Shown piece by piece: positions 1-60,407 of a stretch of DNA of 64,000 nt. The notes under the pieces are model-generated. The model saw only the letters and a program-made list of their open reading frames with translations, was not told the DNA's origin and searched no databases. Both the position numbers and the translations under genes were made by a program. The stretch comes from a virus. Lineage: Duplodnaviria; Caudoviricetes. Location: IMG/VR virus record IMGVR_UViG_3300005973_000002, one strand, 5' to 3'. Each line of letters begins with the position of its first letter. Positions within the stretch are counted from its first letter, which is position 1.

Positions 1-80
1 ATACAATAGAAAAGAAAAGAAGAAAGATTTTTTCAGGTAAGGTTTCTTTCCTCTGTTCTATGTTCACATGGATAAATAGA

Positions 81-2902: not shown

Positions 2903-2908
2903 TAGACA

Positions 2909-2937
2909 AGTATAGGGCTTGTTGGTTTATGTTTCAA
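2909..2937 (-). promoter_or_regulatory. sigma70-like promoter, probably leaderless, for the PolA-like gene
   Basis: TTGAAA (2937-2932), 17 nt, TATACT (2914-2909), then 6 nt to GTG at 2902; no SD. Confidence 0.7.
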
Positions 2938-3048
2938 CCTTATCGGTCAGTCTCAACATGCTGAGGATATACCATTGCCTCAATTTATTAGGGACAACTT
3001 CTTGGAACATCCAATGTGAATCTGATTGCACGTGATTAGCACGAATGC

Positions 3049-4041
3049 GTGGTAAACCAGTATGTTTATCGTTTGAACATGATTCTTTCGTTAGTAGCCA
3101 TATTCATACACATGAAATATCAGGAGCCAATATGTGAGTCTTGCAATTCTACCATTAAGATAAATCGTCCACGAGATAGATTTAAAAGATTTTGTAATCG
3201 CAAGTGTGCATCATATATTCGAACTCAAAAACGAAGAACTGATAGAATGTGTTTGCATTGCAATCAAGAGTTCCAACCACGATACTCAGCACAAAAATAT
3301 TGCTCCCGAAGTTGTTCAAATAGATTCAGAAAAAAACAACATGTACGCTACTGCAATTCTTGCAAACATAAATTTATATTAAAAAATATTGCGTATGAAA
3401 ATAGGGGCAACGGCAAATTTTGTTCGGTATCATGTGCGCAACGGCAATATCCTATTAACAATGCCTTCTTTGACATCATTGACTCAGAAATACAAGCCTA
3501 TTGGTTAGGCTTTTTGTTTGGAGATGGATATCAAAACGGGTACGAATTAGTTGTGAACCTTGCAGTTAAAGATTACAATCACTTATTTTCATTGAAAAGG
3601 GCACTTGATTCAAAACATCCCATCAAAATTATTGATGGCTCAATAGCTTCAATAAGAATTGGAAGTAAGCATTTGTGCAAAGCTCTAACGAAGTTAGGAT
3701 GCGTTCAAGCCAAAAGCAAAACACTCAAATGGCCCAAAACATTAAAACCGCATCTTCAACGACATTTCATAAGAGGGGTATTTGATGCGGATGGCTGTTT
3801 TTATAAGCAAAAGTCTGGACGGACTAAACGTTGGTCTATATATTCAGGGTCCCCAGAATTTTTAGAAGTTATGGCTCAAGTCCTCGCTGGGCATGGTATG
3901 CCGACATCAATTAATCAATGTACAATCAATATTACTAAGCAAAAAGTTTTACAGCACATTTATGCTTTTTTATATAAAAAAAGCACTATATATCTACCAA
4001 GAAAAAAAGAAAAGTTTGCAACATATATCAACTCTCTTTAA
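3049..4041 (+). mobile_element. Free-standing LAGLIDADG homing endonuclease with N-terminal Cys-rich zinc-finger repeats (likely start ATG 3112)
   Basis: Repeated CxxC..YCSxxC units, then QAYWLGFLFGDG and HFIRGVFDADG motifs; opposite strand to its neighbours. Confidence 0.85.
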
Positions 4042-4657
4042 GAGAATTGGGAGTCCAATTTCGTTCCCATCTTTCGTCGGTAGTTACATGATTAGCACGA
4101 ACATACTTTGCTACAGATTCCCTAAAATCGTCATAAGCGAAGGAATCATAAAGTCTGATGACGTACCCTTCAGAATTTTCTTCGCCATTCTGGGGCGACC
4201 AAGATGCTCTGATAGCCTCTTCATCATAGAGCCCCACATACAAAACCGGAACATGTTCAATTTCGAGTAGTTGACACCACTCAACCGTAGAACCCCAATC
4301 TAAGCAGATGTTTTCTTCGTTCCAGATCGAGAATGCAAGGAAATATGAGTTGAGTCTTTCATAGGCAATTGAATGTCTGGCAAAGAGATTTTCTCCGCAG
4401 ATTCGCCATCCTTCGGGTATATGATGAGATAGACGCCCTTGGAGTGCCTTAACCCAGTTTCGACTGGGGTGGTTCGTCGAAGATGTTGTTCTTGCGTGAA
4501 TATGGTCTTTATACATGGTTGTGTTTTCGCCATCCATTTTCTCCGTTACTACTACCTTTTTGCCAACAAAATGATCCATCGACTCAAGAATGCGGTCGTC
4601 CCGAGTCCCCCCAGGACTCCAGGGGCAATGATATGTCCGAGGGTATTTGTAATACAT
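4028..4657 (-). CDS. RNA ligase family protein (Rnl2-like short nucleotidyltransferase domain)
   Basis: YPRTYHCPWSPG, motif I VTEKMDGEN, CGENLFARHSI, EGYVIR, AKYVR. Confidence 0.85.
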   Translation of the reverse strand: MYYKYPRTYHCPWSPGGTRDDRILESMDHFVGKKVVVTEKMDGENTTMYKDHIHARTTSSTNHPSRNWVKALQGRLSHHIPEGWRICGENLFARHSIAYERLNSYFLAFSIWNEENICLDWGSTVEWCQLLEIEHVPVLYVGLYDEEAIRASWSPQNGEENSEGYVIRLYDSFAYDDFRESVAKYVRANHVTTDERWERNWTPNSLKES

Positions 4658-4679
4658 GACATTACTCCAGTGATATCAG

Positions 4680-4708
4680 TTTATACCACACGAAAATCGG
4701 AAAATCAA
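4680..4708 (-). promoter_or_regulatory. sigma70-like promoter for the RNA ligase gene
   Basis: TTGATT (4708-4703), 17 nt, TGG-extended TATAAA (4685-4680); GGAG SD downstream. Confidence 0.65.
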
Positions 4709-4734
4709 CCGAATAATGCATATTTGATCAAAAT

Positions 4735-5760
4735 TTATAGTAGTAGATTTTTTACGGTATTTTTAGCATTGGCAGCAGTTTGAAAGATTTTATCTCTGGC
4801 TTTTATTGCTATTTCTGTATCTGCTTTTTCAAATTTTTTATTGTTCAAGACACTGTCCATCTTAGAAATAAAATTATTTGCTACCGCAACAACAAATTCT
4901 TCAGAAGAATTGTATTGCAATGTCCCGCCATCAAAAATGCCGGCCTTTTCCAAGGCATCCCCGAGAGACTTTATTCCTTGAATGATCCCTTCAACAGATA
5001 AGTTATCGACATTTACTCCAGGAATTTTTGCACTAACTGTTTTGTCTTTGATGGTTCCATATTTTGCCTGAATAAAGAAATTGACAATATCCTGAAATAG
5101 GCTTTCAAAATTCAGTGATGCGACCTTTTCTTCAGTATGTTTACGAACTCTATAAGGAACTAGAACACCCTTTTGAAGCTTTGCACGAGCGCCTCTATCT
5201 CCAATGCTCATCATTAAAGCTTCTGCGAGTGCCGCATAAAGCCCACCAGACACAAAACCTTTTACGTTTCTAATTGGAGTGAATCTGGATTTAGCCCAAT
5301 TGGAATACTTTTTGTGTGTGACAAAAAAATCAATTTGCACATACTTCCCTGGTTCAATTTCAGCAATTATCACAGGAGTCGTCGCCGCATCACCTTTTGA
5401 TTCTTCAATGTCGACGCCTCGGGGTTTGATTTCTCTGAAAAATTCAAACAACTTTTTATTGTAGAACTTTGCAGATATTACTTCATTTTTTCGCTCATCA
5501 TCGGAGTATTCAATCACTGGATATTCAATTAGATAATCAATGTCCCCATAAACATTATTGGGGTTTTCTTCAATATCTTCTTCATAATAATTGCCAGAGC
5601 CAATTGGTCGAATGGGGTTTATTTCAGGCAACCCTTGATGTTTTAGTTGCAACCATTGATTAAAATCTGCAAGCAGATTTTTGGTGAAGATATCCGCACT
5701 TTTTACCAAAAGTGGCGTAAGAAGAACATCTTGTGTCTTAAGTGACGTCCAACCACCCAT
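4735..5760 (-). CDS. Putative Pol-beta superfamily nucleotidyltransferase-fold protein
   Basis: IGSG...YGDIDYL (GS..DxD-like) with a later QIDF acidic strand; 341 aa. Confidence 0.5.
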   Translation of the reverse strand: MGGWTSLKTQDVLLTPLLVKSADIFTKNLLADFNQWLQLKHQGLPEINPIRPIGSGNYYEEDIEENPNNVYGDIDYLIEYPVIEYSDDERKNEVISAKFYNKKLFEFFREIKPRGVDIEESKGDAATTPVIIAEIEPGKYVQIDFFVTHKKYSNWAKSRFTPIRNVKGFVSGGLYAALAEALMMSIGDRGARAKLQKGVLVPYRVRKHTEEKVASLNFESLFQDIVNFFIQAKYGTIKDKTVSAKIPGVNVDNLSVEGIIQGIKSLGDALEKAGIFDGGTLQYNSSEEFVVAVANNFISKMDSVLNNKKFEKADTEIAIKARDKIFQTAANAKNTVKNLLL

Positions 5761-11674: not shown

Positions 11675-11748
11675 TGGCTGCGGGTGTAGGAGTCGAACCC
11701 ACATTAACCGATCCAGAGTCGGTTGTCTTGCCATTAGACGAACCCGCA
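11675..11748 (-). tRNA. trnQ: tRNA-Gln (anticodon CUG)
   Basis: TGCGGGT/ACCCGCA acceptor, ACCGA-CTCTGGA-TCGGT anticodon arm, GGTTCGACTCC T-arm, encoded CCA. Confidence 0.95.
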
Positions 11749-20223: not shown

Positions 20224-21629
20224 TCATTCGAAAATTTGGTATACAACCCAGGCAGAAATACCAAGAAAAGCTAGAAACAAAAATTTATATGATACGGCGG
20301 GACCCATGATGACATTAAAAAGACCAAATAGTGCTGGCATGGCAATTAACCCAAGAATGATCCAGGCGCCGACCTTCATCCAATCCTTAGGATTGTGTGC
20401 AATTTTTGGTTCGACACTCGGGGCATCGTGAGTGAATTTTTTTGTTTGAGCTTTATTTTTATTTGCCCTAAGATTTGCGCCACTTTTCTTTTGTCTTAAT
20501 TCGTCTTCAAGTTCAAGGACTCGCTGTATGGCAGCAGCCTTTTCTTCACGCATTTCATCCAATTTCTTAAGCAACTGTTCATGGGAAAATTCACGGTAGA
20601 TCATTCTTCACTCTCCAGAGTTGGGTTGCATAACTTTACCAGATGTTGCCGTTGAGTCCAAACCGTTTTTTTATCTATTAGAACTTTGTGCCAAAGATTT
20701 TCTTTACCTACCCAACAATCAACAATTATGCCTCGGGTGGCAAAGCGAAGACTCATCCAGCGACCTGTTTCGGCTTCAACTTTATCCTCGTGCTTATCGG
20801 CCTTTTTCACCGATTCGAAATCAAGGTATACTACTAAACTTTCAAGCCAATTGATTATATCTGTGGGGTTGTGACCAATTTCAAAATCTGATGGTTCATT
20901 TAATTCGTAAAGGTCGGCATAATGATCCAAATATTCATCTTGAAATACAAAACGAACCAAAGTCCCATTTTCCAACTTATTCATTTTTATCCAACACTAA
21001 GGCTTCTACTGAAACAGTATATAATTTCTCCTCGATAAGAATAACCGCATCCCATGAGGGAATTGGGCCGGTAATATCCCTAACGACGTCAATAACCAAC
21101 ACTCTTTCTGTTTGTTTGATGATTAAAGGAATGGGGTTTGAAGCGACCCAGGTACGTCCAAATCCCTTTAAACGATATTCACGGATAACACCAAAATTCT
21201 TCTGGATTTGGAAGGGTGACTGGATGAACAACTTGGCAAATTTTTCCCAAAAAGGCTGCTTCAATCGTTTCCCTTGGAAGATCCTTCATTTTGCTCTCTT
21301 TCAACTTCTTCCACCTGTTTCTGAAACTTATACGTAAAAGAAACAAAGTCCGCAATGAAGTATGCCAGCGTTACAGCAATAATTGACGCCACAAGTTCAG
21401 GCAAAAATATCACAAAAAACCCCTGAAGTAAGAGCATCAAGGGAATCATCATAAATAAAAGATAGAAAACTCTAAATAGAGCATTTTTGAGTTTGATCAT
21501 TGTTGTCGTTTCAAACAAGAACAACCGAAGCTTTTCAGCCTCAGTTTTCAAGGTGTTGCAAAACCGTATCGAGGAAGCTGTTTGACCAACCACCATCAAC
21601 ATGCCGCTTTGACTGAATCCAATCGACAA
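20224..21629 (-). CDS. Small ORFs: membrane proteins (20224-20604, 21261-21629) and SH3/KOW-like proteins (20601-20984, 20977-21264)
   Basis: Hydrophobic helix pairs; shared beta-strand pattern; ATGA overlaps. Confidence 0.5.
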
Positions 21630-22764
21630 GACCGCTTACACGGCCCTGGTACTGCTCCATCATCGGCGCCATCCATCCCTTTCGGGCCTGAACAGCAAGC
21701 GCAAACATCTTACGATGCTCCTTGGAGCCCTTCTCATGGATCCAACCCCGACTTTCGTTCCATGCTGCAACCTCTGCAAGACAAGCCTCGTAAACATCAC
21801 GATAGTTTGCCACCAGGTCACGGAATGATGCCTGCAACTTGTGTGCCCGATCCACAACGTGGTCCGGGAATAGCGGCAGTGCATCGTCGAGCTTCTCCAA
21901 AAGAAGCAACTCCACGAGTCCCCGAGGAGACTTCAATACCGAGTCACGAACCTTGTTCAGGGCAAGATAGCCGGCATTCTTAATCTTGATACGGCGAAAA
22001 TGCTGGTCGCAGACCACAATTCCTTCGTGCTTTATCGGATCACATGAAGAAACAAAATCAACAAGTTCAGAAACTGAACCAAAACGATAACGCTCTGCTG
22101 TTGGCGTCTTCACCTGAGCTTGAACAAAGGCCGGACGAAGTTCCTTACCTGTTGCCGTTTTGCGAGCAGCAAGCAAAGTAATGCTGTGTCCTTCATATTC
22201 AACAACGATACGATTCGCAGGACTGGTTAATTCAAACATGTAAGTTGTGTCACGAAATAGTTGTGCTGATGTCCACGATTCAAAATCTTTGCCGACAGTT
22301 TCTTCTAATGCTTTCTCAAAAAGGGTGCGAAAAGTATATTCACCAGATCCATCCACTGGAAGGTTTGCTTCTGGCAATGAGCGAGTTGCAACATGCCATT
22401 CATTCTTCACATCATCATAATAAACGATACAAAGCGTTCCGTCCATCTTTTCATAGAAGGAAGTTGCCGGATGATTAAAATCAACTTCGGCAGCCGCAGA
22501 CTGTCCATAGTTGAAAAAACGATCAAATGATCGAGCCAATATAACTGTATCACCAATTGGACGAGTCAAATCAATCAACTCTTGAATTTTGGTTGGTCGA
22601 AGAATAAGACCACGGCACTGCTGTGCCAGTAAGTCATCTTCACGAGATTCAATATGGTCATAGTTCAATGAAAACTTGTACTCGTGCACACGAGCTTTGA
22701 CGCCATGCTCACGCTCCAAGTCTTCAAGAGACTTGGTTTTCAAATACTCACGAACAAAAACCAT
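21541..22764 (-). CDS. T4 Rnl1-type RNA ligase
   Basis: CRGLIL, SFDRFFNYG, motif I YEKMDGT, TYMFELTSPANRIVV, EGIVV, RIKIKN. Confidence 0.9.
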   Translation of the reverse strand: MVFVREYLKTKSLEDLEREHGVKARVHEYKFSLNYDHIESREDDLLAQQCRGLILRPTKIQELIDLTRPIGDTVILARSFDRFFNYGQSAAAEVDFNHPATSFYEKMDGTLCIVYYDDVKNEWHVATRSLPEANLPVDGSGEYTFRTLFEKALEETVGKDFESWTSAQLFRDTTYMFELTSPANRIVVEYEGHSITLLAARKTATGKELRPAFVQAQVKTPTAERYRFGSVSELVDFVSSCDPIKHEGIVVCDQHFRRIKIKNAGYLALNKVRDSVLKSPRGLVELLLLEKLDDALPLFPDHVVDRAHKLQASFRDLVANYRDVYEACLAEVAAWNESRGWIHEKGSKEHRKMFALAVQARKGWMAPMMEQYQGRVSGLVDWIQSKRHVDGGWSNSFLDTVLQHLEN

Positions 22765-23363: not shown

Positions 23364-24212
23364 TTAATCAATCTCAAAAATTTTGTCAATTGCCGGATGA
23401 CGATATCGAGCCCTGCCTGTTACACATCGAATATTTGGTGTAATTTGATTATCTGCGCCACCATGTGAGTGACCACAGAGAACTGTGATATTTTTATGCT
23501 GATATTTATCAGCCACTGCTAAAAGCATGTCGCCCATGTGCCTGGACGAAAAATGAGGCATCCAATCATCATCGGATATTTTGCCGTCATAAGTAGAGTT
23601 TTCTCTAAATGGTGGAACGTGTGTTGCCACAAACACATGATCAAACTTTTTGAAAGCCTCATGAAGTTGCTCTTCAATATACTCGGCAGCCTCTTTTGCC
23701 AATTCGTTAATTTTAGCAAAACGAAGCTCTTTGGTTGGACAAGCACTATCTGCAAGTTCTTTAATGAGCAAATAATCATTCAAATATACTCTACTTTTAA
23801 ACCAGTTGGCGTATTGCCCATCATACCAACCATCGTGACCAACCAATGCAATTTTTTCCGTGAGAGGAATTACACCAGAAGTATTGAGCCAGCCAAGACG
23901 AGCCTCCAAAATCATCTTGGAGGTTTCATCATAGGTAAAAAGCCTGCCCATTGTTTCACGGACGTTCTCAATGGAGCCGTTATAATAATCGTGATTTCCC
24001 AAAACAAAGAAAATAGGGCATCTGTGCTCTAGGTTGTAATCCATGAAACCAAGATAATCTACAAGTGATGGTGCTTCGGCAATATCGCCAGTGATGACGA
24101 TGGCCGAAGGTTCCTGAGCTTTTATCTTTCGACAAAAGGACTTAATCCCTTCCTCATGAACAAAATTCAAATGGATATCAGTCGCAAAAAGGAGCTTGAA
24201 ATTGTCAGTCAT
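23364..24212 (-). CDS. Calcineurin-like metallophosphoesterase (CpdA/Icc-like)
   Basis: TDIHL, TGDIAE, LGNHDYY, THVPP, CGHSH. Confidence 0.9.
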   Translation of the reverse strand: MTDNFKLLFATDIHLNFVHEEGIKSFCRKIKAQEPSAIVITGDIAEAPSLVDYLGFMDYNLEHRCPIFFVLGNHDYYNGSIENVRETMGRLFTYDETSKMILEARLGWLNTSGVIPLTEKIALVGHDGWYDGQYANWFKSRVYLNDYLLIKELADSACPTKELRFAKINELAKEAAEYIEEQLHEAFKKFDHVFVATHVPPFRENSTYDGKISDDDWMPHFSSRHMGDMLLAVADKYQHKNITVLCGHSHGGADNQITPNIRCVTGRARYRHPAIDKIFEID

Positions 24213-31996: not shown

Positions 31997-33412
31997 TTAC
32001 AATAGTGTTGGAAATAGAACTACATCACGGAGAGTGGTTTGGTTAGTCATAATGGCAACAAATCTGTCCACTCCCATTCCCAAGCCTGAACAAGGTGGCA
32101 TGCCATATTCCATGCACTCAAGAAAATCTTCCTCAAGCATCATGGCCTCGTCATCGCCGTCCTCACGGGCAGCCATCTGTTCCTCCAACAACTGTCGCTG
32201 TAGAACAGCGTCAGTAAGCTCCGTGTAACACTTCACAAGCTCCCAGCCATTGACAATAAACTGCCACTGCTCGACCGTGCGGCCGTCTTCGCTTCGCTGT
32301 GCGAGAGGACTCATGTGAGCCGGGTAATCCTTGAGGAAAATCGGCTGAACAAGGTTTGGCCGCACCTTCTCCTTAAACATTTCGTCGATTTCCTTTGCAG
32401 AACTCAACGACCAGGGCGAAATTCCAGTATATTGCTCAAATACCGCAGCATAAGACCTTACCGGAGGATCGGTAAAATCAAGCTTGGTCCCCTGATATTC
32501 GACAATCATCCTCTTAATAAGAGGAGAAGCGGGATCGTTTGAATATTCATGACCGGCCGCAAAGAAAAGGTAAGACAAAAGCATCTTAAACAACTCAAGG
32601 TTGTCCATATAACTCATGTAAGCGCCATACCACTCAACCGAGGTAAACTCCTGCAAGTGGGAAGGATCGACCCCTTCATTGCGAAAGTTCTTTCCGATCT
32701 CATACACTCGATCAAAAGAAGCTGCAACAGCACGCTTCAAGTAAGTCTCAGGTGCAATACGAAGATAAAGATCGGCATCCAGTGCATGATGATGCGTCTG
32801 AAAAGGACGAGCCTGGGCTCCTGAAGCCCGAGTCTGTAAGATCGGGGTTTCCACTTCCATGAAACCGTAGCGCTCCAGAAACTTACGAAGCTCCGAAACA
32901 ATCCGAGAACGGGTCACGAAAACCTGCTTCACATCAGGGTTCATGACAATATCAAGGTAACGCTTACGAAGACGTAGCTCCGGATCAACAATTCCATCAA
33001 CCTTATTTGGGAAGGGATGGATTGGATCACGGAGAACCTTGAAAGCACGGTTTACCAAAACCGTCTTCTCGCCAGTAGTGGAAGTCCACATTTCACCTTC
33101 AATGGTGATAATACTGCCCATCTTTACAGCCTTCATCCACCCCTTGAAGCTTTCGGGGGTTTCACGCTTGTTGAAACAAAACTGAATCTTTCCAGACTGA
33201 TCGACAAGCTTTCCGAAAGCAATGGAGCCAAGTCGTCGAAAATTAACAACCCGACCCGCAAGAGTAACAGCGTGGCCGTCCCTAAGCTCAAGAGCATTGC
33301 TGGCCATCCAAGTTTGGTAGACGCCCTTTTCCACAAACTCCGAAAACTTCGGCTTGCGGACGGTCTCGGCCAACTGTTCAAGAGTACCTTCTTCATTACT
33401 TAGAGTAGACAT
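31997..33412 (-). CDS. lysS: Lysyl-tRNA synthetase, class II
   Basis: OB-fold AGRV..GSIAF, RLRKRYLD, EVETPILQ, YLRIAPETYLKR, FRNEG..HLQEFT, EYGMPPCSGLGMGVDRF. Confidence 0.95.
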   Translation of the reverse strand: MSTLSNEEGTLEQLAETVRKPKFSEFVEKGVYQTWMASNALELRDGHAVTLAGRVVNFRRLGSIAFGKLVDQSGKIQFCFNKRETPESFKGWMKAVKMGSIITIEGEMWTSTTGEKTVLVNRAFKVLRDPIHPFPNKVDGIVDPELRLRKRYLDIVMNPDVKQVFVTRSRIVSELRKFLERYGFMEVETPILQTRASGAQARPFQTHHHALDADLYLRIAPETYLKRAVAASFDRVYEIGKNFRNEGVDPSHLQEFTSVEWYGAYMSYMDNLELFKMLLSYLFFAAGHEYSNDPASPLIKRMIVEYQGTKLDFTDPPVRSYAAVFEQYTGISPWSLSSAKEIDEMFKEKVRPNLVQPIFLKDYPAHMSPLAQRSEDGRTVEQWQFIVNGWELVKCYTELTDAVLQRQLLEEQMAAREDGDDEAMMLEEDFLECMEYGMPPCSGLGMGVDRFVAIMTNQTTLRDVVLFPTLL

Positions 33413-34935: not shown

Positions 34936-37622
34936 CTAATGCATCCAAAACCAAAAACTTATTTTCGTCTTAAGTGACAACGATTTACACTTGTCAGCTT
35001 GAATATAGATTCTTCTACCTCCCCAATCCATAAGCCACAATTCAAAGTTGTGATAACAGTGTTTATCGAGCAATGTGAGATATCGACCAACCGGCACGAA
35101 TACGTGGTCATTTGACCCAGAATGCAAAAATCCCCAGGCCCAAGCACCATCATCTTTGACTTGGTGAGTTACAAGTCCCAACTTTACGTGGAACCATACC
35201 CAAATTTTAAATAACCACTGTCGCATTATATTAGTTTTCACGCATATCATATTCGGCATTGTCGCACATGGACACACGTGCCTCAACATCAAAATGTGGG
35301 CTATAAATACGACGTCCACGGTACGTGAATTTTTCACGGACTTCATGCTCCATTGCAACCTTGCAAGCCTTCCAAGCTGTTTCTACGATTTCTGTGATAG
35401 TTGAATATGGCGACAAATACCACTTGCGACAATGCTGTGGGATGGGACCAGCCTCAGGATTCTCAACATCGATGTCCATGAAAACCCATTGAAGAAGAAA
35501 CCCGTCCCCCTTTTCCATGAGACGAAGCTCCCAACCCATAAATTGGATATTCTTTAAGATTATCTGAACTTCGTCAATACTCTTTCGTCGTTGAACTATG
35601 CTTGCCTCAAAAAATTTCGCTATAATGGTTGATAATGCTAGCGCCACGCTTGGCAAAATATTGCCGAATTTTAATATAAACCTCAGCGAGGTTATCATTG
35701 GTTGAGTTTAGTCCACCTCTCGAATCCAACCCATCGCTGATTTCAACCCACTCAACCGTAGAATCGTCAGGGTTTGGGATGCATTCTTCAGTGGAATAAA
35801 ATCCAGAAACATAAAGCCTGTCTGAACAGCCCACAACATGAACAATAACCTCTGTCGTGTCATAATCACCACCGGGTTGGGTAGAAGCAACCTTTTTGAC
35901 CTTGCTGATCTTGCTAAGCTCGTCGATAACCTCACTTGTCTTCCAGTAATACACAGTATCTCCTAAGGTATTCTTTAGTTAAGATCCTATTCTTAACAAG
36001 AAAATGCTCAAAATTTAAAGCAGAAGTAAAATAAACACCGTCATTGTAAATGACTCGTACCCAATTTGTAGCACCTAATTCAGATGCGCCAAGGTACATT
36101 ACCCAAGGCTGTCCTTCTATGGTTATGACGTTCGTAAATTTGCTTCTGATCTCACCTAACTTGCCAGGCGATGGTTCTTTAACCAAGGTAAACAATCTAC
36201 CTTGACCCATGTCGCCGAAGTGGCCGGTCATCTGATACAACTTTCCAGGCTTTAGGACATTGGTAATTTCACCAATAACAAAATCATCAATTTTACCAGA
36301 TGAGTGACTCACAGTAATTTACTCACACCAACTTGATGTCATAGATAGACAACTTTCCACCAGCAATTGGGATATCAATCAATTCAGTCTTGTCGGTCTT
36401 AATTCCAAGTGGCAAACGTTCATCTTTATCGGTTGGGATGTGGATTTTATCCTCAAGTGGGTGTTTGGTAACAATCATGGTTTTGTCTCTAGAACCTTGC
36501 ATGTCGTATCCGGCAAACATGCCAAACACATAATAGAAAGGATTCGGCACTGTAACTTTGTATCGAGAATCGTTTTCCCGAGCTTCCTTCCATGAATCGG
36601 CCACGAGCGATTCAAAGAAGTATTTTGGCATATAACGATATAGTCTCTGCCCATTCCATCCGGGACCGACGGGACCACTTGTTACTGTGTGCGGAAACCC
36701 AGGATTGTAACTAGGATCCATTTTCTGGACTTCCTTGAGTTTACGAACCTGCAAAGGCCCCTCGTAGGACAGTTCAGGATCTTCATGTTCAAACTTTACC
36801 CAATACTTCTGACCATAACCATTACGACGCTTAATCATAGCAAGCGTTGCGGGTTCACTGTGATCTTCCTGAGCTTCCGCAGAAATTGAAGTATCGTTGA
36901 CCACAGTGAAGTTTGCATAGTTGAAATCAGCAAGCTTTACCCAGAAACGTCCATAATTGTTTCTGTTTCCTTTGGCTTTAACCAAAGCTTGATCTGTAGT
37001 TTCGATAATTTTGAGCGTTACACTCGAAAATTCCTTAAGGCCCTTTCGAACATAAATGCGATCGACTTCAAGTTTTGTTCCAGCTGGAAGTGTTCTCGAA
37101 TAGGAATCAAGCTCGTTTTGCCAGCTATAACTGGTATTTCGACCATCGGCAAGTGCGACATCACTGTTGCGATGTTCAAGATAAAGCTCGAACGTCCAGT
37201 CTTTTTCGACTTTAAGCTCAGAGCCAAGTTCGGGAATAAATGCCTTCATGTCAAGACTCCAGGTATTTCTCTAGTTCAACCAGAACCTTGTTGGCAATTT
37301 CTTCTGCTGAATCATCTTCAACTTCATCAGCCAACGTAAGCTCATAGAAAACATCATCCCCTCCATGATCAAGGGTGATGTTATACTTTTCCTCAAGAGA
37401 GGAAACCAGCTTGCCAAATTCTTCTGCGAAGAAGATGTTTTCAGGATGATATTGGTTGCTCACAAGCGACCTTTCCTCGATATCATTCTCATCTTCTTCA
37501 GCAAAAGGATTCCATTCGGTCCACAGGACTCGTAGTTTTAGGTTGTGGGTCTGCATCTTATTCTCCCAATACAATTTTGTCGAACGCTTTACTCTTTTTT
37601 GAGGTTGAAGTTGTAGACACAA
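34936..37622 (-). CDS. Run of hypothetical ORFs (35231-35698, 35607-35954, 35932-36312, 36323-37249, 37251-37622 and others)
   Basis: Contiguous ORFs; no function recognised. Confidence 0.55.
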
Positions 37623-38326
37623 CAGTCAAGTCCAATGGCAACTTCGAGCACCAACAGATCTTTTTCTACAACTTTGTTTTTTGCCTGAAACTTTGCCCTG
37701 ATAGGAAAATCAGTTCGCAGAGAAATCGAACAGACCTCCATCCACTTGTCGCCATTATCAACCTCAACATCCATTGTTTTTTGGCTGTAAGATGGAAGAC
37801 GGTCAGAAACAACAATTCTAGTTGGCAAATGAACCATTTCTGCAATCATTTTTCGAACAGGTTCTAGCACTGCCGAATGATAGTCATTTAGTGTATCTGC
37901 TGTAAAAATGCACTGAAATTCCTGCTGATAAAACTCTTTCAGCCGCATGTTTTTGGTAACCTGGTCCTGTTCCCGTCGAAAACTTTTACCGGTCTGCCAA
38001 ACCACAAAAGGTGGGCGAGTTGGCTTTGAAAGTCCCCGGAGTAGATGGGCTGCGTATGCATACGAACCAGGCGTGGTTTCAGGTCGTAGAACGAGTCCAG
38101 GATTTTCCCCTTCTTGAAACCAAACATCCTCACGTGTATAGTTTGGGTTAATCAGAGTTTCAGGAGTAAGGATGGGAGTTTCAACCTGAAAAAAAGCCCA
38201 GGCCGGATTCATTTCGAGCAATGCCGTCTTTAGTTCAGCCAAAAAGTGTTGCTCAAACACTCTTCGTAGTCTGATTTCACGTTCAGACCAGAAAATAAGA
38301 CCGTTGCTGTTGTACAGGCTATCCAT
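37589..38326 (-). CDS. Glycyl-tRNA synthetase-like class II aaRS catalytic core lacking an anticodon-binding domain
   Basis: VETPIL, LRPETT, motif 2 GKSFRRE..MRLKEFYQQEFQ, MEVCSIS, motif 3 AIGLD; ends at 245 aa. Confidence 0.8.
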   Translation of the reverse strand: MDSLYNSNGLIFWSEREIRLRRVFEQHFLAELKTALLEMNPAWAFFQVETPILTPETLINPNYTREDVWFQEGENPGLVLRPETTPGSYAYAAHLLRGLSKPTRPPFVVWQTGKSFRREQDQVTKNMRLKEFYQQEFQCIFTADTLNDYHSAVLEPVRKMIAEMVHLPTRIVVSDRLPSYSQKTMDVEVDNGDKWMEVCSISLRTDFPIRAKFQAKNKVVEKDLLVLEVAIGLDCCVYNFNLKKE

Positions 38327-38362: not shown

Positions 38363-38609
38363 CCACTTTACAATATTAGAGGTTTCTTAAAGCTTCGGGC
38401 ACACACTGCATACCACGGGTGACCCATTGTTCGATTTCTGGACTTCCAAATTCAAAGCAGCCTTCCCAGCGGGTCTGAATCCAAGCTCTAAAAGAAGCAA
38501 TGCTTTCTTTAGCTGGGTCGCCTTTTCAGGTACCTTGCACACTCCGAACAGAACCCAAAACCAAACCATCGTCCGAACAATAGAAATTCGAACATTATTC
38601 CTTCTTCAC

Positions 38610-38637
38610 AAAAAAAGGACGCCGAAGCGTCCTTTTT
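38610..38637. terminator. Rho-independent terminator after the split ligase C-part
   Basis: AAAAAGGACGC-CGAA-GCGTCCTTTTT. Confidence 0.8.
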
Positions 38638-39365
38638 CAGTTGTATTCTGTTCCGCCCTTACGGGTGAGGTAATCACCGCTAACAGACTTTAGCTGAACA
38701 CGGCCAATTTCTTCGCTCCAGCGTTCTACCGTAGGTCGAACAACAACACCCTCACGGATATGCATTTCCTTACCGGAAATAGTCTCGAAGCCGTCAGTGT
38801 ACTCGTACAAAACCTTCTTCGAGAAGGGCCCACGGTAAAGCACCGGAACACGCTGAAGACCAAGTCTCTTGCAAGCCGCATCAAGCTCAGAGTCGTTCAA
38901 ATAACTGCCAGACCCTGGACGTCCAACATAAATATCAAATACTCTAAAACCGATCTCGACGTCCTTGTCGGCAGAACTGCCATAAGAAAGGTCCTGAACA
39001 CCACGTCCAAAAATCTCTCCAAGAACGTAAACCGGCTGTGGATCGAAATCGTGTTTTAGCTGATGACCAAAAGCAAATGAAATACGGTTGTCCATGTTGT
39101 AGTGTCGAGCGACACGCACGTATAGATTCGTCTTGTTGGCTTCGGCATCATACTTCATCGCCAGTCCACGAGCCGAAAGACCCTTGGATGAGATAATGAG
39201 ACGGCCCTCCTCGGGATGGGCATCCCTCGGCGGCATAAGGCCAATCATACACCAGGTGTTATGAACAACAATGCCTTCAGCAATATAGTTGTTGTTGCCA
39301 CCATCAATCTCTAAATCATAGAGATCACTATCACTTTCAACATACTCAATCTTAACACAGCGCAT
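38637..39365 (-). CDS. C-part of a fractured RNA ligase (DRB0094-like): 36-aa intein C-half plus C-extein
   Basis: MRCVKI..LYDLEI..NYIAEGIVVHN|T then ligase motifs VLGEIFG, FRVFDI, REGVVVR, LKSVSGDYL. Confidence 0.85.
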   Translation of the reverse strand: MRCVKIEYVESDSDLYDLEIDGGNNNYIAEGIVVHNTWCMIGLMPPRDAHPEEGRLIISSKGLSARGLAMKYDAEANKTNLYVRVARHYNMDNRISFAFGHQLKHDFDPQPVYVLGEIFGRGVQDLSYGSSADKDVEIGFRVFDIYVGRPGSGSYLNDSELDAACKRLGLQRVPVLYRGPFSKKVLYEYTDGFETISGKEMHIREGVVVRPTVERWSEEIGRVQLKSVSGDYLTRKGGTEYN

Positions 39366-39651
39366 TTTTTACTCTTTCTATCGTTTTTTCTTTTTGATTG
39401 TTCCAATCACTTTCCCAAACAATTAGAACTTTGTACCCTCTTTTGAGCAAGGCGGCGGTGCGCCTTTTATCTCTTTTCCATTGTTGCCCAACAGTCCTGG
39501 AAATCCAAGAGCAATATTCGCTTGGGTCGTGAAATTTTGTTGGATTACAATGGAACATATCTCCATAGAATTCCAAGATAACTTTCTCACTTTTCAACAA
39601 GCCGTCTACGATAAACCCTGATATAATTTCTTCACGATTTGACGCCTGCAT
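39352..39651 (-). mobile_element. Vsr/DUF559-like endonuclease ORF between the split intein halves
   Basis: IVDGL..ILEFYGDMFHCNP..RD..R..GYKVLIVWESDW; different frame from both flanking ORFs. Confidence 0.8.
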
Positions 39652-39659
39652 GGGACTTG

Positions 39660-40454
39660 CTACATGATTGGACTTTCAATATCTTCATCAGGCAAAAGTT
39701 TGCCAGCTTCCACCCACATTTGTCGGTCACGTGAATAAACGGGGTGATCCTCGGTTAAGGTGAGAGTAGAACCGTTTTCTAAGGTAAGCTTTACCCATTT
39801 TTTATCTTCACTGTTTAGCCGACGCATGCGACCAGTAATAGGTCGCTCAATATATTCCTTGCTTTGTTCATTATAAGATAAAACCGACTGAATTGTTTTA
39901 TCAGCCACTACTTCTGCGATAGACCGCTCGCTTCCATCTACAAGTCGGACCATACTTGCTTCATGCAAGCATCCATGAAGTTTCTCAGTGAAAACAACCT
40001 CTTCACCTTCCTCAAGAATGTGAGGAAAACGCTTAAAATTTTCGATATCGTACTTCAAGGTACGGTCCTGACCAGCAGCGAACACCTCACCGGAAAGATG
40101 GGCCGGAATTGGAGGCTCCCACTTGGTAATTCCAAGAATATTAGCAACATCAGCACCCTCTTGCCACTCAGGACGTGCAGGATACACAAGTCCCTGTGAA
40201 AGGATGCCACGAAGACGAATGGCCTTTACACGATTCTTTGCCTTTCCGGCAAGCTTACCCTCAAGACCCATTTCACGGAGGAGAGCCTGAGGAACGACAG
40301 CCTGTTCTGGAATGTAGGCAACGAGATCACCGCTCTTAAACTGGTCCTTGCGGACAATTGCTTGGTAATCGCCCACCTGGGCGAGTTCTAAAGCATCAGC
40401 ATTGGGGTGTTCAAGAACAGTAATCCGTTCGACAGTTACAGAAAAAGTTGACAT
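39660..40454 (-). CDS. N-part of a fractured RNA ligase: N-extein (aa 1-161) plus 103-aa intein N-half
   Basis: EHPNADALELAQV, RVKAIRLRGILSQGL, motif I TEKLHG|CLHEAS.., block B LTLTEDHPVY. Confidence 0.9.
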   Translation of the reverse strand: MSTFSVTVERITVLEHPNADALELAQVGDYQAIVRKDQFKSGDLVAYIPEQAVVPQALLREMGLEGKLAGKAKNRVKAIRLRGILSQGLVYPARPEWQEGADVANILGITKWEPPIPAHLSGEVFAAGQDRTLKYDIENFKRFPHILEEGEEVVFTEKLHGCLHEASMVRLVDGSERSIAEVVADKTIQSVLSYNEQSKEYIERPITGRMRRLNSEDKKWVKLTLENGSTLTLTEDHPVYSRDRQMWVEAGKLLPDEDIESPIM

Positions 40455-45588: not shown

Positions 45589-45610
45589 GACAAGTCTTCG
45601 TTGAGGTTAA

Positions 45611-45694
45611 TACCCAGGGTGGGACTCGAACCCACAAGGGCTTGCGCCCGGAAGATTTTGAATCTCCTACGTATGCCAATTCCGTCACCTGGGC
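45611..45694 (-). tRNA. trnL: tRNA-Leu (anticodon CAA)
   Basis: GCCCAGG/CCTGGGT acceptor, GGAGA-TTCAAAA-TCTTC anticodon arm, long variable arm, GTGGGTTCGAGTCCCAC; CCA not encoded. Confidence 0.93.
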
Positions 45695-45697
45695 ATG

Positions 45698-54873: not shown

Positions 54874-56460
54874 CTAACCTCGATATCGATTAATCAGGGA
54901 CTCCACCTCAGTCTGGAGTAAATCACTTCTTCGACCCGCAGAAAATGGCATTTCATCGAATTCACGGATTACACGAGCCTCACAGGTCATGAAATCATCA
55001 GTGAAGCCAGGGCCGAAAGGTTCATCAGAAGTGCCATCGTAATAGGTAACCAATGCATCATCACCAAGTTCGCCAGGTGCCGCAAGAGTGACCCCAGAGG
55101 TAAGGGCAATATCATCACGGAGAACCATGCATTCTGGGAGAGTCTGCTTACCAGGAGAATTGCTCAACTTGATAACTGGACGATCGTCGTTGCCGACAGC
55201 ACAGAGAGCAAATTTGGTGCTCATGTGGTCCCTGTTGATATTGTTACGAAGATGCCCGCCAATACTGAAAATACCACATCGCCATGGAACAAAACCGGCC
55301 GCAAGAGCTGCGTCGGTAATTTGAAGAACACTATCAAACGATTCACCGTTACCAACAATAAATCGAAGCGTGGTAGAAACATGACGTGTGACACCATCAG
55401 CACACAAGTGCTCAGCCATAAGCCCAGCCTGATGTGCCTTTTGTAGAGTACCAATCACCATATCTGTCGAATCGCCTGAATCAGGACGGGCAACAACGGT
55501 TCTTCCAGAGCCATCCGCCTGAGCCCTAAGGGCAAGGGGGATAAGGTGTTTCTCAAGCGCAGCCCAATAATCATAACAATCACCAACCATGCTGAGTAAT
55601 TCGTGATTGTCAGCAGTATCGTACATGTTCTCATAACAGTCGCCTTCGACTGCATAACCCTGCACGATGCGATGCGCAAGAGCTTTCACCGAAGAGCCAA
55701 AAGCAGCTGGTGCGCCATTTTTCCAGTTCTGGAAAGCAGCACGGAACGTGTCCGTACCAAACCAGACATAGTTGTGAACCCGACCCACCAATTCCGATTC
55801 CATTGGAGATGCTGCTGCCCTGTCGCCGAAATCATGAATCATGAGTCGGGCAAAAAACATGCACTCCTCGTCGCTAACCGAGTCAGGCTCAAATTTCCTG
55901 ATGAGATTGTAGGCATACTTCAAAAAGTGTCGAGCGGCGGTCAAACGCTCCGTGGCAGCCCAAACATGCAGCAGGGTGGACTCGAACCAAGGAACCAGCG
56001 GTCCAAACCCAGGCTCTGTAGCCTCCACCCTGAGGAATGGCTCGTGCGGATAAATTACAGAGCCTTCGGGCATTCCAACGACCTTGAGTGGAAGGTAGCC
56101 TCCGTATTCCTTGACGACTCGTCGCCACATTTCCTCAGGAAATTCGAAATCGTCAAAAGATCCGTCGTACTTTGCCTTTCGGCCCTTCAAAAATTCGATA
56201 GTCTCATCGATTTCGGAATTGGTGATCGGATCGTAAAAAAGCAAGTCGCAAAGCTGTTGCAAACCAGCAAAGACAATACGCTGGTCTTCAGGCGAATAAA
56301 ACGGCTCATGTGCATGAGGAAACTTCCTGAAAGTACCGTAATACTTGGAATTTTCCGTAGCCTCTTGGCTCTCGAAGGTAAATCCGTTAATGGTGTAAGC
56401 GTCACTCCAGAGCATTCTGGGTGTTCTATGATATCTTCTTGCGGGTAGTTTCTTTGCCAT
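54874..56460 (-). CDS. nadV: Nicotinamide phosphoribosyltransferase-family enzyme
   Basis: SDAY, PHEP..RVE, FES.L, IHDFGDRA, FGTDT, DCYDY, VVARPDSGD, IGG.L...INRD, KLS..PGK. Confidence 0.85.
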   Translation of the reverse strand: MAKKLPARRYHRTPRMLWSDAYTINGFTFESQEATENSKYYGTFRKFPHAHEPFYSPEDQRIVFAGLQQLCDLLFYDPITNSEIDETIEFLKGRKAKYDGSFDDFEFPEEMWRRVVKEYGGYLPLKVVGMPEGSVIYPHEPFLRVEATEPGFGPLVPWFESTLLHVWAATERLTAARHFLKYAYNLIRKFEPDSVSDEECMFFARLMIHDFGDRAAASPMESELVGRVHNYVWFGTDTFRAAFQNWKNGAPAAFGSSVKALAHRIVQGYAVEGDCYENMYDTADNHELLSMVGDCYDYWAALEKHLIPLALRAQADGSGRTVVARPDSGDSTDMVIGTLQKAHQAGLMAEHLCADGVTRHVSTTLRFIVGNGESFDSVLQITDAALAAGFVPWRCGIFSIGGHLRNNINRDHMSTKFALCAVGNDDRPVIKLSNSPGKQTLPECMVLRDDIALTSGVTLAAPGELGDDALVTYYDGTSDEPFGPGFTDDFMTCEARVIREFDEMPFSAGRRSDLLQTEVESLINRYRG

Positions 56461-59159: not shown

Positions 59160-60407
59160 TCAGCCGGTCCTTTTAGTTAAATCAAAATGCGTTTCAATGA
59201 AGTTGATAACCATTTCAGGATCAGCCGTTGAGCGGAAAAGAACGTTAGGACCATGTTTGTCTAACATGACAGCCCCAATCTTATCCGACTCAAATAGTTT
59301 AATACCACTAGCAGTGTTTTGTCCACACTGATGCGAACCACACTCAAAGAACTTTTGAGAAACCTTAGGAATAACATTTTTAGTTTTCATTTCGCAATGA
59401 AAATGAACAACGCAATCAAATTGATCATATTGTCGAAGCAATTCAAATTGACTTCGTACACCCGCACTAGGCTTTCCACCAATCGATTCGACAATTTCAT
59501 TGTCAGAAAATGACACCATGGCAAGATCAAGCCCACCAGGTTCATTATAATTCTGTTTTCTTCTCGAAGAGAAGATACACTTTTCATTAACCAAGAATCC
59601 AAAATGACCAACGGTTTTGCCATCGAAAGCTTGGTAAGCCCCTCGTTTTACACAATGTTCAACTACGGTCTTCAGCGTAGAAGGAGCTGTATGCCATGCA
59701 ATGGGTACATCGGCCACAACTCTTGTTCTTGTAAATTCATTTGTTGAGCGAGCTAATGTAATATCGATTAATTCATTCAATGCTTCAAAACGATCAGTGG
59801 TTTTTCCGTAGGCAGCCATTTCTGGCGTAAGAATCATATTCATGCGAGTATGAACATCATTAGCGAGGACAAGATTGCAACTGTTTTGCTTTAACAGTTT
59901 CATACCTGCTTCAAACTGCTCCTCTTCGGTTGCGCCAGCTGTTGTTTTAAAGCCTACCAAAAAAATGTCCTTCCTCGTTTTGCGAATACGACCAATGATC
60001 TTATCCGCTGGTTTCATTGAAAGCATGTGTAAACCATTTGATGTCTTCAGCCTTGGTTGTTCTTTTCCAGACTCGGTTACTCCAACATTATATTCATTTC
60101 CAGCGAGCACATTACCCTCAAAATCACAGAGTGCAGCACTCATGAAGAGGATTTTTGGTGCTGGATCATCCAGCAAATTGTCAATAAGCTTGGAAATGTC
60201 ATCGTTTGTTTCAAGCGAATCCCCACCAGCCATTCTTGTTAGGTGGAGTTGAATTTTTCGATTTGAATCCTTAGATAGGATTAAATTCCTGAGGATTTTC
60301 GCTGTTTTGCCGTAGGCTGGAGCGCTTAGCGCTAAATGTGGCCTGATATGGAAAACAGTTCCTCCACCGATAATATGAATTTCTTTGGTAGCTTCTTTTG
60401 GCGACAT
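59160..60407 (-). CDS. Phosphopantothenate-cysteine ligase (CoaB)-like domain fused to a class II aldolase-like domain
   Basis: GGGT, SAALCDF, LVGFKT, CNLVLAND; C-terminal KPS, VVHFH, HG. Confidence 0.7.
   Translation of the reverse strand: MSPKEATKEIHIIGGGTVFHIRPHLALSAPAYGKTAKILRNLILSKDSNRKIQLHLTRMAGGDSLETNDDISKLIDNLLDDPAPKILFMSAALCDFEGNVLAGNEYNVGVTESGKEQPRLKTSNGLHMLSMKPADKIIGRIRKTRKDIFLVGFKTTAGATEEEQFEAGMKLLKQNSCNLVLANDVHTRMNMILTPEMAAYGKTTDRFEALNELIDITLARSTNEFTRTRVVADVPIAWHTAPSTLKTVVEHCVKRGAYQAFDGKTVGHFGFLVNEKCIFSSRRKQNYNEPGGLDLAMVSFSDNEIVESIGGKPSAGVRSQFELLRQYDQFDCVVHFHCEMKTKNVIPKVSQKFFECGSHQCGQNTASGIKLFESDKIGAVMLDKHGPNVLFRSTADPEMVINFIETHFDLTKRTG

Follow-up and report, generated by a model that had tools for sequence, protein, structure and literature searches.

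How can a functional enzyme be made from a gene that is broken inside its own active-site motif? This question is raised by a locus in IMG/VR virus record IMGVR_UViG_3300005973_000002, a 64,000-nucleotide (nt) stretch (the window), which stems from a jumbo phage found on contigs of 0.3-0.46 Mb in hypersaline-lake metagenomes. Here an Rnl5 RNA ligase is divided between two open reading frames (ORFs), each of which carries one half of an intein, and a third ORF related to Vsr-like endonucleases lies between them. We assign a probability of roughly 85% to the reading that the locus is a genuine fractured gene, in which the Rnl5 ligase is encoded as two polypeptides carrying class-1 split-intein halves.

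The three ORFs are all on the minus strand. The N-half ORF (39660-40454 (-), 264 amino acids (aa)) ends in a TAG stop (39660-39662 (-)), and the middle ORF (39352-39651 (-), 99 aa) starts 8 nt past it. The ATG of the C-half ORF (38637-39365 (-), 242 aa) lies inside the 3′ end of the middle ORF, giving an overlap of 14 nt. N- and C-half share a common frame and the middle ORF lies in another. A Shine-Dalgarno (SD) sequence, GAGG, is positioned 6 nt 5′ of the N-half ATG. An intrinsic-terminator-like hairpin read from the sequence (GGACGC-TTCG-GCGTCC followed by a T7 run; 38605..38636 (-)) stands directly 3′ of the C-half stop (38637-38639 (-)), and a program scan of the window lists the same hairpin on the plus strand at 38612-38637. 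Terminator-like sites were looked for on the coding strand between the three ORFs and none was found. Because the hairpin follows the C-half stop and none lies between the ORFs, the arrangement suggests that all three end in one transcription unit and are co-transcribed.

Profile searches identified the outer parts of the two halves as one ligase. The N-extein (residues 1-161; 39972..40454 (-); PF21189, TIGR02306) comprises the OB domain and the first part of the adenylyltransferase domain and ends at motif I, K158-L-H-G161. The C-extein (C-half residues 37-242; 38640..39257 (-); PF09414, TIGR02306) opens with Thr+1 (T-W-C-M) and contains the remainder of the adenylyltransferase domain. The N-half matched PF21189 (PHA02142 OB domain, E 5.7e-13) and positions 3-170 of TIGR02306 (148.7 bits), and the C-half matched PF09414 (E 1.7e-18) and positions 179-341 of TIGR02306 (96.9 bits); jointly they span positions 3-341 of a model whose cut-off of 151.15 bits neither half reaches alone. 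NgrRnl (5cot) also aligned with the N-extein, through its N-terminal domain and its KLDG motif (E 6e-18). In the alignment with unsplit ligases, which read FTEKLHG/TWCMIG, the break falls exactly between G161 and Thr+1, three residues from the motif I lysine K158, with no extein residue lost and none duplicated. N- and C-extein are 89% and 86% identical, respectively, to the unsplit ligase P0007, and the TWC of the junction is the native sequence in 91 of 113 intact ligases. The GC content of the inserted module (0.37-0.43) differs from that of the exteins (0.47-0.52); the module resembles the flanking genome and the ligase exteins are the GC-rich part, and the difference was not taken as evidence.

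The sequence inserted at this point has the anatomy of a split intein. IntN (103 aa, C162-M264; 39663..39971 (-); TIGR01445, Hint PF01079) begins with block A, CLHEAS, which supplies Cys1, contains block B, T234-E-D-H237, and ends in the tail EDIESPIM before the TAG. IntC (36 aa, M1-N36; 39258..39365 (-); TIGR01443, PF14890) contains block F (DLEIDG...) and a block G ending in V-V-H35-N36. Residues 162-240 of the N-half matched the intein N-terminal model TIGR01445 (E 7e-7), and residues 15-37 of the C-half matched the intein C-terminal model TIGR01443 (E 1.7e-5), with a further match to PF14890 positions 123-155. All class-1 residues are therefore present: Cys1 (C162, after G161), T234-E-D-H237, H35-N36 and T37 as the +1 residue. 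Among solved structures, the closest to IntN include that of the NrdJ-1 split intein (8ubs). The sequence-only reading had proposed a DRB0094-type ligase broken in its TEKLHG motif and intein halves of 103 and 36 aa, the latter ending in VVHN before Thr+1; the profile matches and the exact junction agree with both proposals, and its ORF coordinates, 8-nt spacing, 14-nt overlap and frames were correct in every detail.

Each half is encoded as a polypeptide in its own right, the N-half closing with a stop and the C-half opening with a start codon. A contiguous intein made by reading through or recoding the TAG was ruled out by four further stops in the N-half frame before the C-half ATG, and extension of the middle ORF is impossible, as it is closed immediately upstream. 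In a structure prediction, the complex of IntN (152-264) with IntC (1-46) scored 0.86, compared to 0.00 for the best of three controls; of 78 solved complexes 51 attained that mark, as did 2 of 108 mismatched pairs. The prediction supports association of IntN and IntC.

The same architecture recurs widely. Homologue searches with each half returned many split homologues beside hundreds of unsplit ligases. A first set of 24 N-halves, with an IntN of about 102 aa, grew to 29 after exhaustive search, all with Cys1 and a T-x-x-H block B (in the family, T-x-D/x-H-P). IntN measures 97-104 aa in most of the 29, a few being cut short or carrying an insert, and the EDIESP tail precedes the stop. Eight of the 11 C-halves parsed have a 36-aa IntC ending in (V/A)HN followed by Thr+1 (TW). 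In the other three, IntC is 40 aa long and followed by Ser+1, which marks a second intein type. The three-gene layout with its 14-nt overlap recurs in L005-L007 and in L008, and the stop after EDIESPxx, the separate endonuclease frame and the overlap are kept in relatives that are only 67-77% identical at the DNA level. The sequence-only reading had taken the arrangement to be unique; with at least 29 diverged N-halves and 11 C-halves in metagenomes, it is not. The second type, represented by P0036 together with P0126/P0129/P0131 (on a 44-kb contig; L024 may be related), looks unrelated to the first, sits at the same Rnl5 site and displays classical charge complementarity (IntN -14, IntC +4).

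Other alleles occupy the same site. Contiguous inteins with Cys1 are inserted at the same point after K-x-H-G, namely the mini-intein P0191 and P0225, P0296 and P0323, which carry an in-frame LAGLIDADG domain; the split point in the window aligns with the LAGLIDADG insertion point of these cis forms. The site is empty in closely related unsplit ligases, including L065 and L066, and L066 is syntenic with the window, having the same neighbor resembling a class-II aminoacyl-tRNA synthetase (aaRS) at 85% aa identity. This empty site, as seen in L065 and L066, is the candidate target of the endonuclease. An ORF of 211-270 aa lies between the halves in L001, L002, L003, L005-L007 and L009/L010. A 107-aa protein, P0183, was considered as a second short endonuclease and discarded, since it is cut by a contig end. 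In L004 (3001-4702), the N- and C-half are 31 nt apart with no endonuclease gene between them and with HNH genes nearby; this looks like the end state of endonuclease loss, or like a split intein that never carried one. Separately, in L058 (2501-3581) and L063/L064 the match to N-extein residues 1-161, which would take up 483 nt if uninterrupted, extends over 710-1081 nt; this suggests other insertions within the OB/N-terminal part of Rnl5 ligases. A target-site palindrome, GAAGCTTC, present in empty alleles and destroyed in intein alleles, was considered and found unsupported over 20 loci, as L001 and L004 have AAGCTT together with the intein. A skew in the histidine codon (CAT/CAC, 6 of 7 versus 4 of 13) was seen among loci that are not phylogenetically independent.

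The middle ORF (39352..39651 (-); DUF559, Vsr) was compared with these longer relatives. It matched DUF559 (E 7.6e-7), MTES_1575 and positions 54-119 of Vsr (TIGR00632), in each case only C-terminal parts of the model. It shares 55-65% identity with the C-terminal ~95 residues of the 211-270-aa ORFs in L001, L002, L003, L005 and L009 and 73% identity with the contig-cut copy of L008, and it is missing ~115-175 N-terminal residues found in L001, L002, L003, L005 and L009. Gone with them are a zinc-ribbon-like CxxC...CxxC motif and a helical region, and also the helix and strand that lead up to the first catalytic Asp, including the position equivalent to Vsr Gln42. Retained are D16, H34 and D61, the equivalents of Vsr D51, H69 and D97, which are invariant in seven homologues, among which 31 columns are invariant in all. 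An AlphaFold model of the 99-aa ORF had moderate confidence (pLDDT, predicted local distance difference test, 71). Its top Foldseek match was 1vsr (probability 0.96), among Foldseek matches that were weak overall (E 0.06-0.9), and 3r3p (I-Bth0305I) aligned weakly over 92 of 97 residues with a Foldseek TM-score of 0.41; a phmmer search of the endonuclease against the PDB found Vsr and did not find 3R3P. The structural evidence for family membership is suggestive. Judged by its alignments, the ORF is a remnant of a free-standing homing-endonuclease gene of the EDxHD/Vsr-like family, with neither the N-terminal DNA-binding region nor a complete catalytic domain. The sequence-only reading was thus right about the position, family and frame of an out-of-frame Vsr-like endonuclease between the halves and wrong in taking it as intact, the 211-270-aa homologues marking it as the product of a deletion.

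The deletion was traced with contigs from X6, one of two marine-sediment runs (X6 and X7) holding a close relative of the module. The window gene is 504 nt shorter than that of L005, and upstream of the core nothing is homologous to L005 until the ~25 nt that directly follow the N-half stop. Two stretches are matched by X6 contigs, 39241-39640 with 7 differences and 39640-39740 with 1, and both contigs part from the window precisely at 39640. Read in the coding direction, the loose end on the left is homologous to the start of the L005 endonuclease, ATGAGTAAA... (MSK...), ~31 nt past the TAG, and the one on the right (...IQRSI) joins N5-R-E-E of the window ORF with the frame kept. The X6 endonuclease has its own start (ATGAGT...) in a frame other than that of the ATG at 39651. 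On this comparison, one internal deletion of ~0.5 kb is what removed the endonuclease's own start and its N-terminal ~165 codons, and an ATG in the spacer with ~4 codons became fused at 39640/39639 to the C-terminal catalytic core. An in-frame deletion keeping the original start codon, as the L005 alignment had allowed, was ruled out by the X6 loose ends in favor of this spacer-ATG fusion. The spacer segment ATGCAGGCGTCAA (39640-39651 region, the first codons of the 99-aa ORF) resembles ATTCAGCGTTCAA before the X6 core at 10 of 13 bases. The pair may be an imperfect direct repeat through which the deletion arose, though exact microhomology at the joint comes to only 1 nt.

The same contigs bear on the movement of the module. 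In X6 the intein part at 39802-39971 has 1 difference from the window, compared to 18 in the adjoining N-extein at 39972-40073 (~82% identity); at the other end the match extends no more than 13 nt beyond the boundary of IntC and extein. X6 and X7 thus hold a 98-99% identical intein/endonuclease module in a ligase that is ~82% identical. Consistently, about 38 and 31 of 192 sampled whole-locus 31-mers were held by X6 and X7, respectively, and 37 and 30 of 74 sampled module-only 31-mers; X8 displayed the opposite pattern. These comparisons indicate recent mobility of the module. Homing predicts exactly such a near-identical module with an undeleted endonuclease in a diverged ligase from another habitat, and the deletion in the window would therefore be recent. 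Scans of viral and metagenome collections for the X6-type allele as a full contig gave only distant relatives.

Whether the 99-aa remnant still acts as a nuclease, for example as a dimer of catalytic domains that aids homing or excludes competing phages, deserves the most serious consideration among the alternatives. The ORF is open, the equivalents of D51, H69 and D97 are kept alongside the 31 invariant columns, and the core has only those 7 differences from X6 in 400 nt. Moreover, the isolated 100-aa catalytic domain of I-Bth0305I folds and dimerizes, and the enzyme's highest specificity is at the cleavage site (PMC3239194). Set against this are the loss of the gene's own start, with no recognizable SD sequence before the ATG of the 99-aa ORF, the loss of the zinc ribbon, helical region, helix and strand up to the first Asp and the Gln42 position, the moderate model confidence and the weak fold matches. 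As the deletion appears recent, the lack of further decay is uninformative; so is the ratio of nonsynonymous to synonymous substitution rates (dN/dS) for the truncated ORF, since dS is saturated in the comparisons with L005 and L008 and the copies of the window allele do not differ from one another. Persistence of the 3′ end can be understood otherwise: it supplies a purine-rich SD-like stretch and the ATG of the C-half, in a 14-nt overlap conserved in L005 and L008, and must stay because the ribosome-binding region and start codon of the C-half lie there. We regard residual nuclease activity as unlikely and the remnant as quite likely inactive as a homing enzyme; cutting of an intein-less allele by the window copy would probably fail.

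From established class-1 intein chemistry, we infer how the two chains would be joined by protein trans-splicing. The element would have entered the active-site codons of the ligase along with the free-standing EDxHD/Vsr-like homing-endonuclease gene. IntN and IntC would associate into a Hint fold, and Cys1 would undergo an N-S acyl shift to a thioester, aided by the block B Thr-x-x-His (T234, H237). Thr+1 would then attack the thioester, Asn36 of IntC would cyclize with the aid of His35, and an O-N shift would restore KLHG-TWC with a native peptide bond. Neither half would be a ligase by itself, since one chain has motif I and the other the remaining motifs; only in the spliced chain would all active-site motifs come together. 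The domain searches, the junction mapping, the family-wide conservation and the complex prediction all agree with the split-intein reading first proposed from the sequence, with trans-splicing itself inferred from them.

Several points weigh against this reading. Both halves are acidic (net charge -5 for IntN and -6 for IntC, with IntC at -6 to -8 across all type-1 members), and the global charge complementarity typical of well-studied split inteins is absent. The score of the predicted complex may stem from solved split inteins memorized by the model. No RNA run holding the locus was found. In favor of the reading, dN was far lower than dS in every segment compared with L005 and L008; dS, however, is saturated against the available relatives, and the comparison is thus no gauge of current purifying selection on the window copy. 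The X6 evidence consists of single Logan contigs at a depth of 3-4. Finally, the phage has a second, Rnl1-type RNA ligase, and the Rnl5 ligase might be dispensable.

Taken together with the partly deleted endonuclease, the acidic halves, the Rnl1-type ligase 17 kb away and the absence of the locus from RNA runs could describe a decaying pseudogene, in which the invasion inactivated the ligase, the halves are unspliced or unused and the phage relies on its other RNA ligase. We consider this improbable. Both exteins are full length, have neither stops nor frameshifts and share 86-89% identity with unsplit ligases; the intein has kept all its catalytic residues, and the locus has no lesion outside the endonuclease. 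The split architecture is moreover kept in at least 29 diverged N-halves, and in L004 it has outlasted the endonuclease gene, which is lost entirely there; if the halves had no function, such persistence would be difficult to account for.

The halves might instead assemble non-covalently and work without splicing, the intein halves serving as docking domains. A precedent is given by NrdA of phage Aeh1, which is split by a homing endonuclease and reportedly assembles without splicing (PMC3045599), and the tight IntN-IntC interface that is predicted would permit docking. Family-wide conservation of Cys1, the block B Thr/His, His-Asn and Thr+1 would be unexpected if docking alone mattered, and, with the break 3 residues past the adenylylation lysine, a 139-aa Hint domain would sit inside the active site. 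We hold docking without splicing to be highly improbable.

The arrangement lies far outside chance expectation, and assembly of the locus was consistent across sources. The exact N-half protein is found on 20 contigs, 13 of them 0.2-1 Mb in length, and ENA, Logan and JGI assemblies of different samples have 0 mismatches to the window locus over 1586-1795 nt. A Logan contig of run X5 spans 38500-40153 and bridges both junctions with 0 differences and 0 indels; deposited phage genomes gave no near DNA match to the window. Homopolymer runs near both junctions (A6 before the C-half ATG) had left room for a contiguous intein with an in-frame endonuclease domain broken by compensating indels, the outcome that the sequence-only reading had named as fatal to itself, and this artefact is effectively refuted by the identical assemblies, the indel-free X5 contig, the architecture conserved in 67-77% identical relatives and the four additional stops in the N-half frame.

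The Rnl1-type RNA ligase (T4 Rnl1 type, PF09511, E 3e-15; 21541-22764 (-)) adjoins a calcineurin-like metallophosphoesterase (23364-24212 (-)). The phage accordingly has at least two RNA ligases and a possible end-healing enzyme, with this pair of genes about 17 kb away from the split Rnl5 gene. Immediately downstream of the Rnl5 ligase, 37589-38326 (-) encodes a 245-aa protein consisting of a class-II aaRS catalytic core only (tRNA-synt_2b), a gene conserved beside the ligase in the empty-site relative L066 (85% aa). A full-length class-II aaRS of the Asp/Lys/Asn type is encoded at 31997-33412 (-), and tRNA-Gln(CUG) and tRNA-Leu(CAA) lie at 11675-11748 and 45610-45695, respectively. The company of the aaRS genes, the two tRNAs and the Rnl1-type ligase with its metallophosphoesterase suggests a role for the Rnl5 ligase in RNA or tRNA repair.

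Further features of the window are of separate interest. At 1619-2902 (-), 3049-4041 (+) and 4028-5760 (-), a 427-aa ORF matches only positions 135-352 of a family-A DNA polymerase model and is adjacent to an opposite-strand 330-aa ORF with LAGLIDADG_3; the region (1619-5760) is possibly another polymerase gene interrupted by a homing-endonuclease element. A NAPRTase/NAMPT-like gene (54874-56460 (-)) and a DFP (pantothenate-metabolism flavoprotein)-like gene (59160-60407 (-)) are auxiliary metabolic genes typical of very large phages.

The alleles collected here give the locus a wider meaning. Motif I of Rnl5 ligases is invaded recurrently, by mobile elements of at least three kinds, and the loci line up into an unusually complete natural series: a homing endonuclease breaks the gene, it spreads, and it then decays, the split intein having to remain functional throughout. 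Its steps are the freshly deleted endonuclease of the window, the 98-99% identical undeleted module in a diverged ligase, the empty-site relatives and the endonuclease-free split locus. The family's natural split-intein pairs, Cys1/Thr+1 (and also Ser+1) with a 36-aa IntC, are diverged and number in the dozens; such pairs are raw material for orthogonal protein-ligation tools. A joint interpretation would go further on four counts at once: that Rnl5 motif I is an undescribed hot spot with every stage of the homing cycle (empty, cis LAGLIDADG, mini, and split with a full, truncated or no EDxHD endonuclease); that type 1 is a new, fast, orthogonal Cys1/Thr+1 split intein whose acidic halves associate with no overall complementarity of charge, possibly salt-dependently, in a hypersaline host; that phage RNA repair is gated by protein splicing; and that the endonuclease stub has been domesticated as a translational-coupling leader for the C-half. 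That all four hold together is a speculative proposition to which we give rather low odds.

Among known systems, the ligase resembles NgrRnl (5COT) and DraRnl (DRB0094; TIGR02306) in having an N-terminal OB domain followed by an adenylyltransferase domain with the motif I KxxG. NgrRnl and DraRnl are reported to seal 3′-OH/5′-PO4 nicks with an RNA 3′-OH strand (PMC4408790, PMC5397189). The window protein, a predicted ligase of this kind, differs from both in being in two pieces around a split intein.

The halves of DnaE split inteins measure about 100 aa (IntN) and about 36 aa (IntC). Like the Npu/Ssp DnaE and Neq Pol split inteins, the window intein has halves of ~100 + 36 aa and class-1 residues; unlike them, with their distant loci and no endonuclease between, its halves are adjacent and both net acidic. 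The sequence-only reading had suggested that a Thr+1 split intein could be a new orthogonal ligation tool; Thr+1 as such has a precedent, as the natural split intein of Neq Pol is Ser1/Thr+1, and Cys1/Thr+1 accounts for about 12% of inteins (PMC11766414). The window intein shares Thr+1 with Neq Pol and differs in having Cys1 rather than Ser1. The cis inteins P0225, P0296, P0323 and P0191 share with it the insertion point directly after K-x-H-G and Cys1, whereas they are contiguous, are associated with another endonuclease class and, in the two parsed (P0191 and P0225), have Ser at +1. Their IntN regions are ~26-34% identical to the window IntN, and they are probably independent invasions of the same hot spot.

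The endonuclease resembles I-Bth0305I/EDxHD (3R3P) in its C-terminal Vsr-like core with conserved Asp/His/Asp (PMC3239194), and the full-length homologues at these loci likewise have an N-terminal non-catalytic region followed by a C-terminal nuclease. The N-terminus of the homologues is zinc-ribbon-like, CxxC...CxxC (with weak Pfam hints), instead of the NUMOD/helix-turn-helix repeats documented for I-Bth0305I. Whereas I-Bth0305I is intron-encoded, the window gene is free-standing between intein halves, and its N-terminal region is gone.

The closest parallel is found in the fractured genes of Dassa et al. (2009), which comprise the gp41-1..8, NrdJ-1/2, NrdA, IMPDH-1, DnaE, DNA ligase and TerL split inteins at loci with free-standing GIY-YIG or Vsr-like endonucleases (PMC2677866). 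In 15 of those loci the endonuclease 3′ end overlaps the downstream start by 6-69 bp, and in the published model the invading element supplies that start (PMC2677866). The window locus shares with them the order and strand of N-extein+IntN, short spacer, own-frame endonuclease and IntC+C-extein, as well as the phage origin, the Vsr-like endonuclease, the insertion in an active-site motif and the overlap of endonuclease and C-half (14 nt here). Its ORFs, domains, junction and overlap thus bear out the earlier designation as a fractured gene under the definition in that report (PMC2677866). It departs from them in the internally deleted endonuclease and in a spacer of 8 nt to the fused ATG, compared to 27-51 nt.

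The host is the other departure. The eight host types of Dassa et al. are gp41, IMPDH, DnaE, NrdA, NrdJ, DNA ligase, terminase and an unknown protein, with no RNA ligase among them (PMC2677866); these hosts serve DNA synthesis, repair and packaging, whereas that of the window is an Rnl5 RNA ligase, an RNA-repair enzyme. Full-text literature searches that combined split inteins with RNA ligase brought up nothing relevant, and a recent actinobacteriophage survey reported inteins in RtcB-type ligases only and called the Vsr-like endonuclease known only from the 2009 report. Some fractured Rnl5 members are already deposited at NCBI under generic names, and no paper describing them was found. The earlier statement that no RNA-ligase host was known for this arrangement agrees with the searches and with the Dassa host list, and both the RNA-ligase host and the insertion site appear undescribed in the searchable literature. 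The window locus is a further example of the known fractured-gene layout and not a new kind of system, one that takes fractured genes and split inteins beyond the enzymes of DNA metabolism to an RNA-repair ligase.

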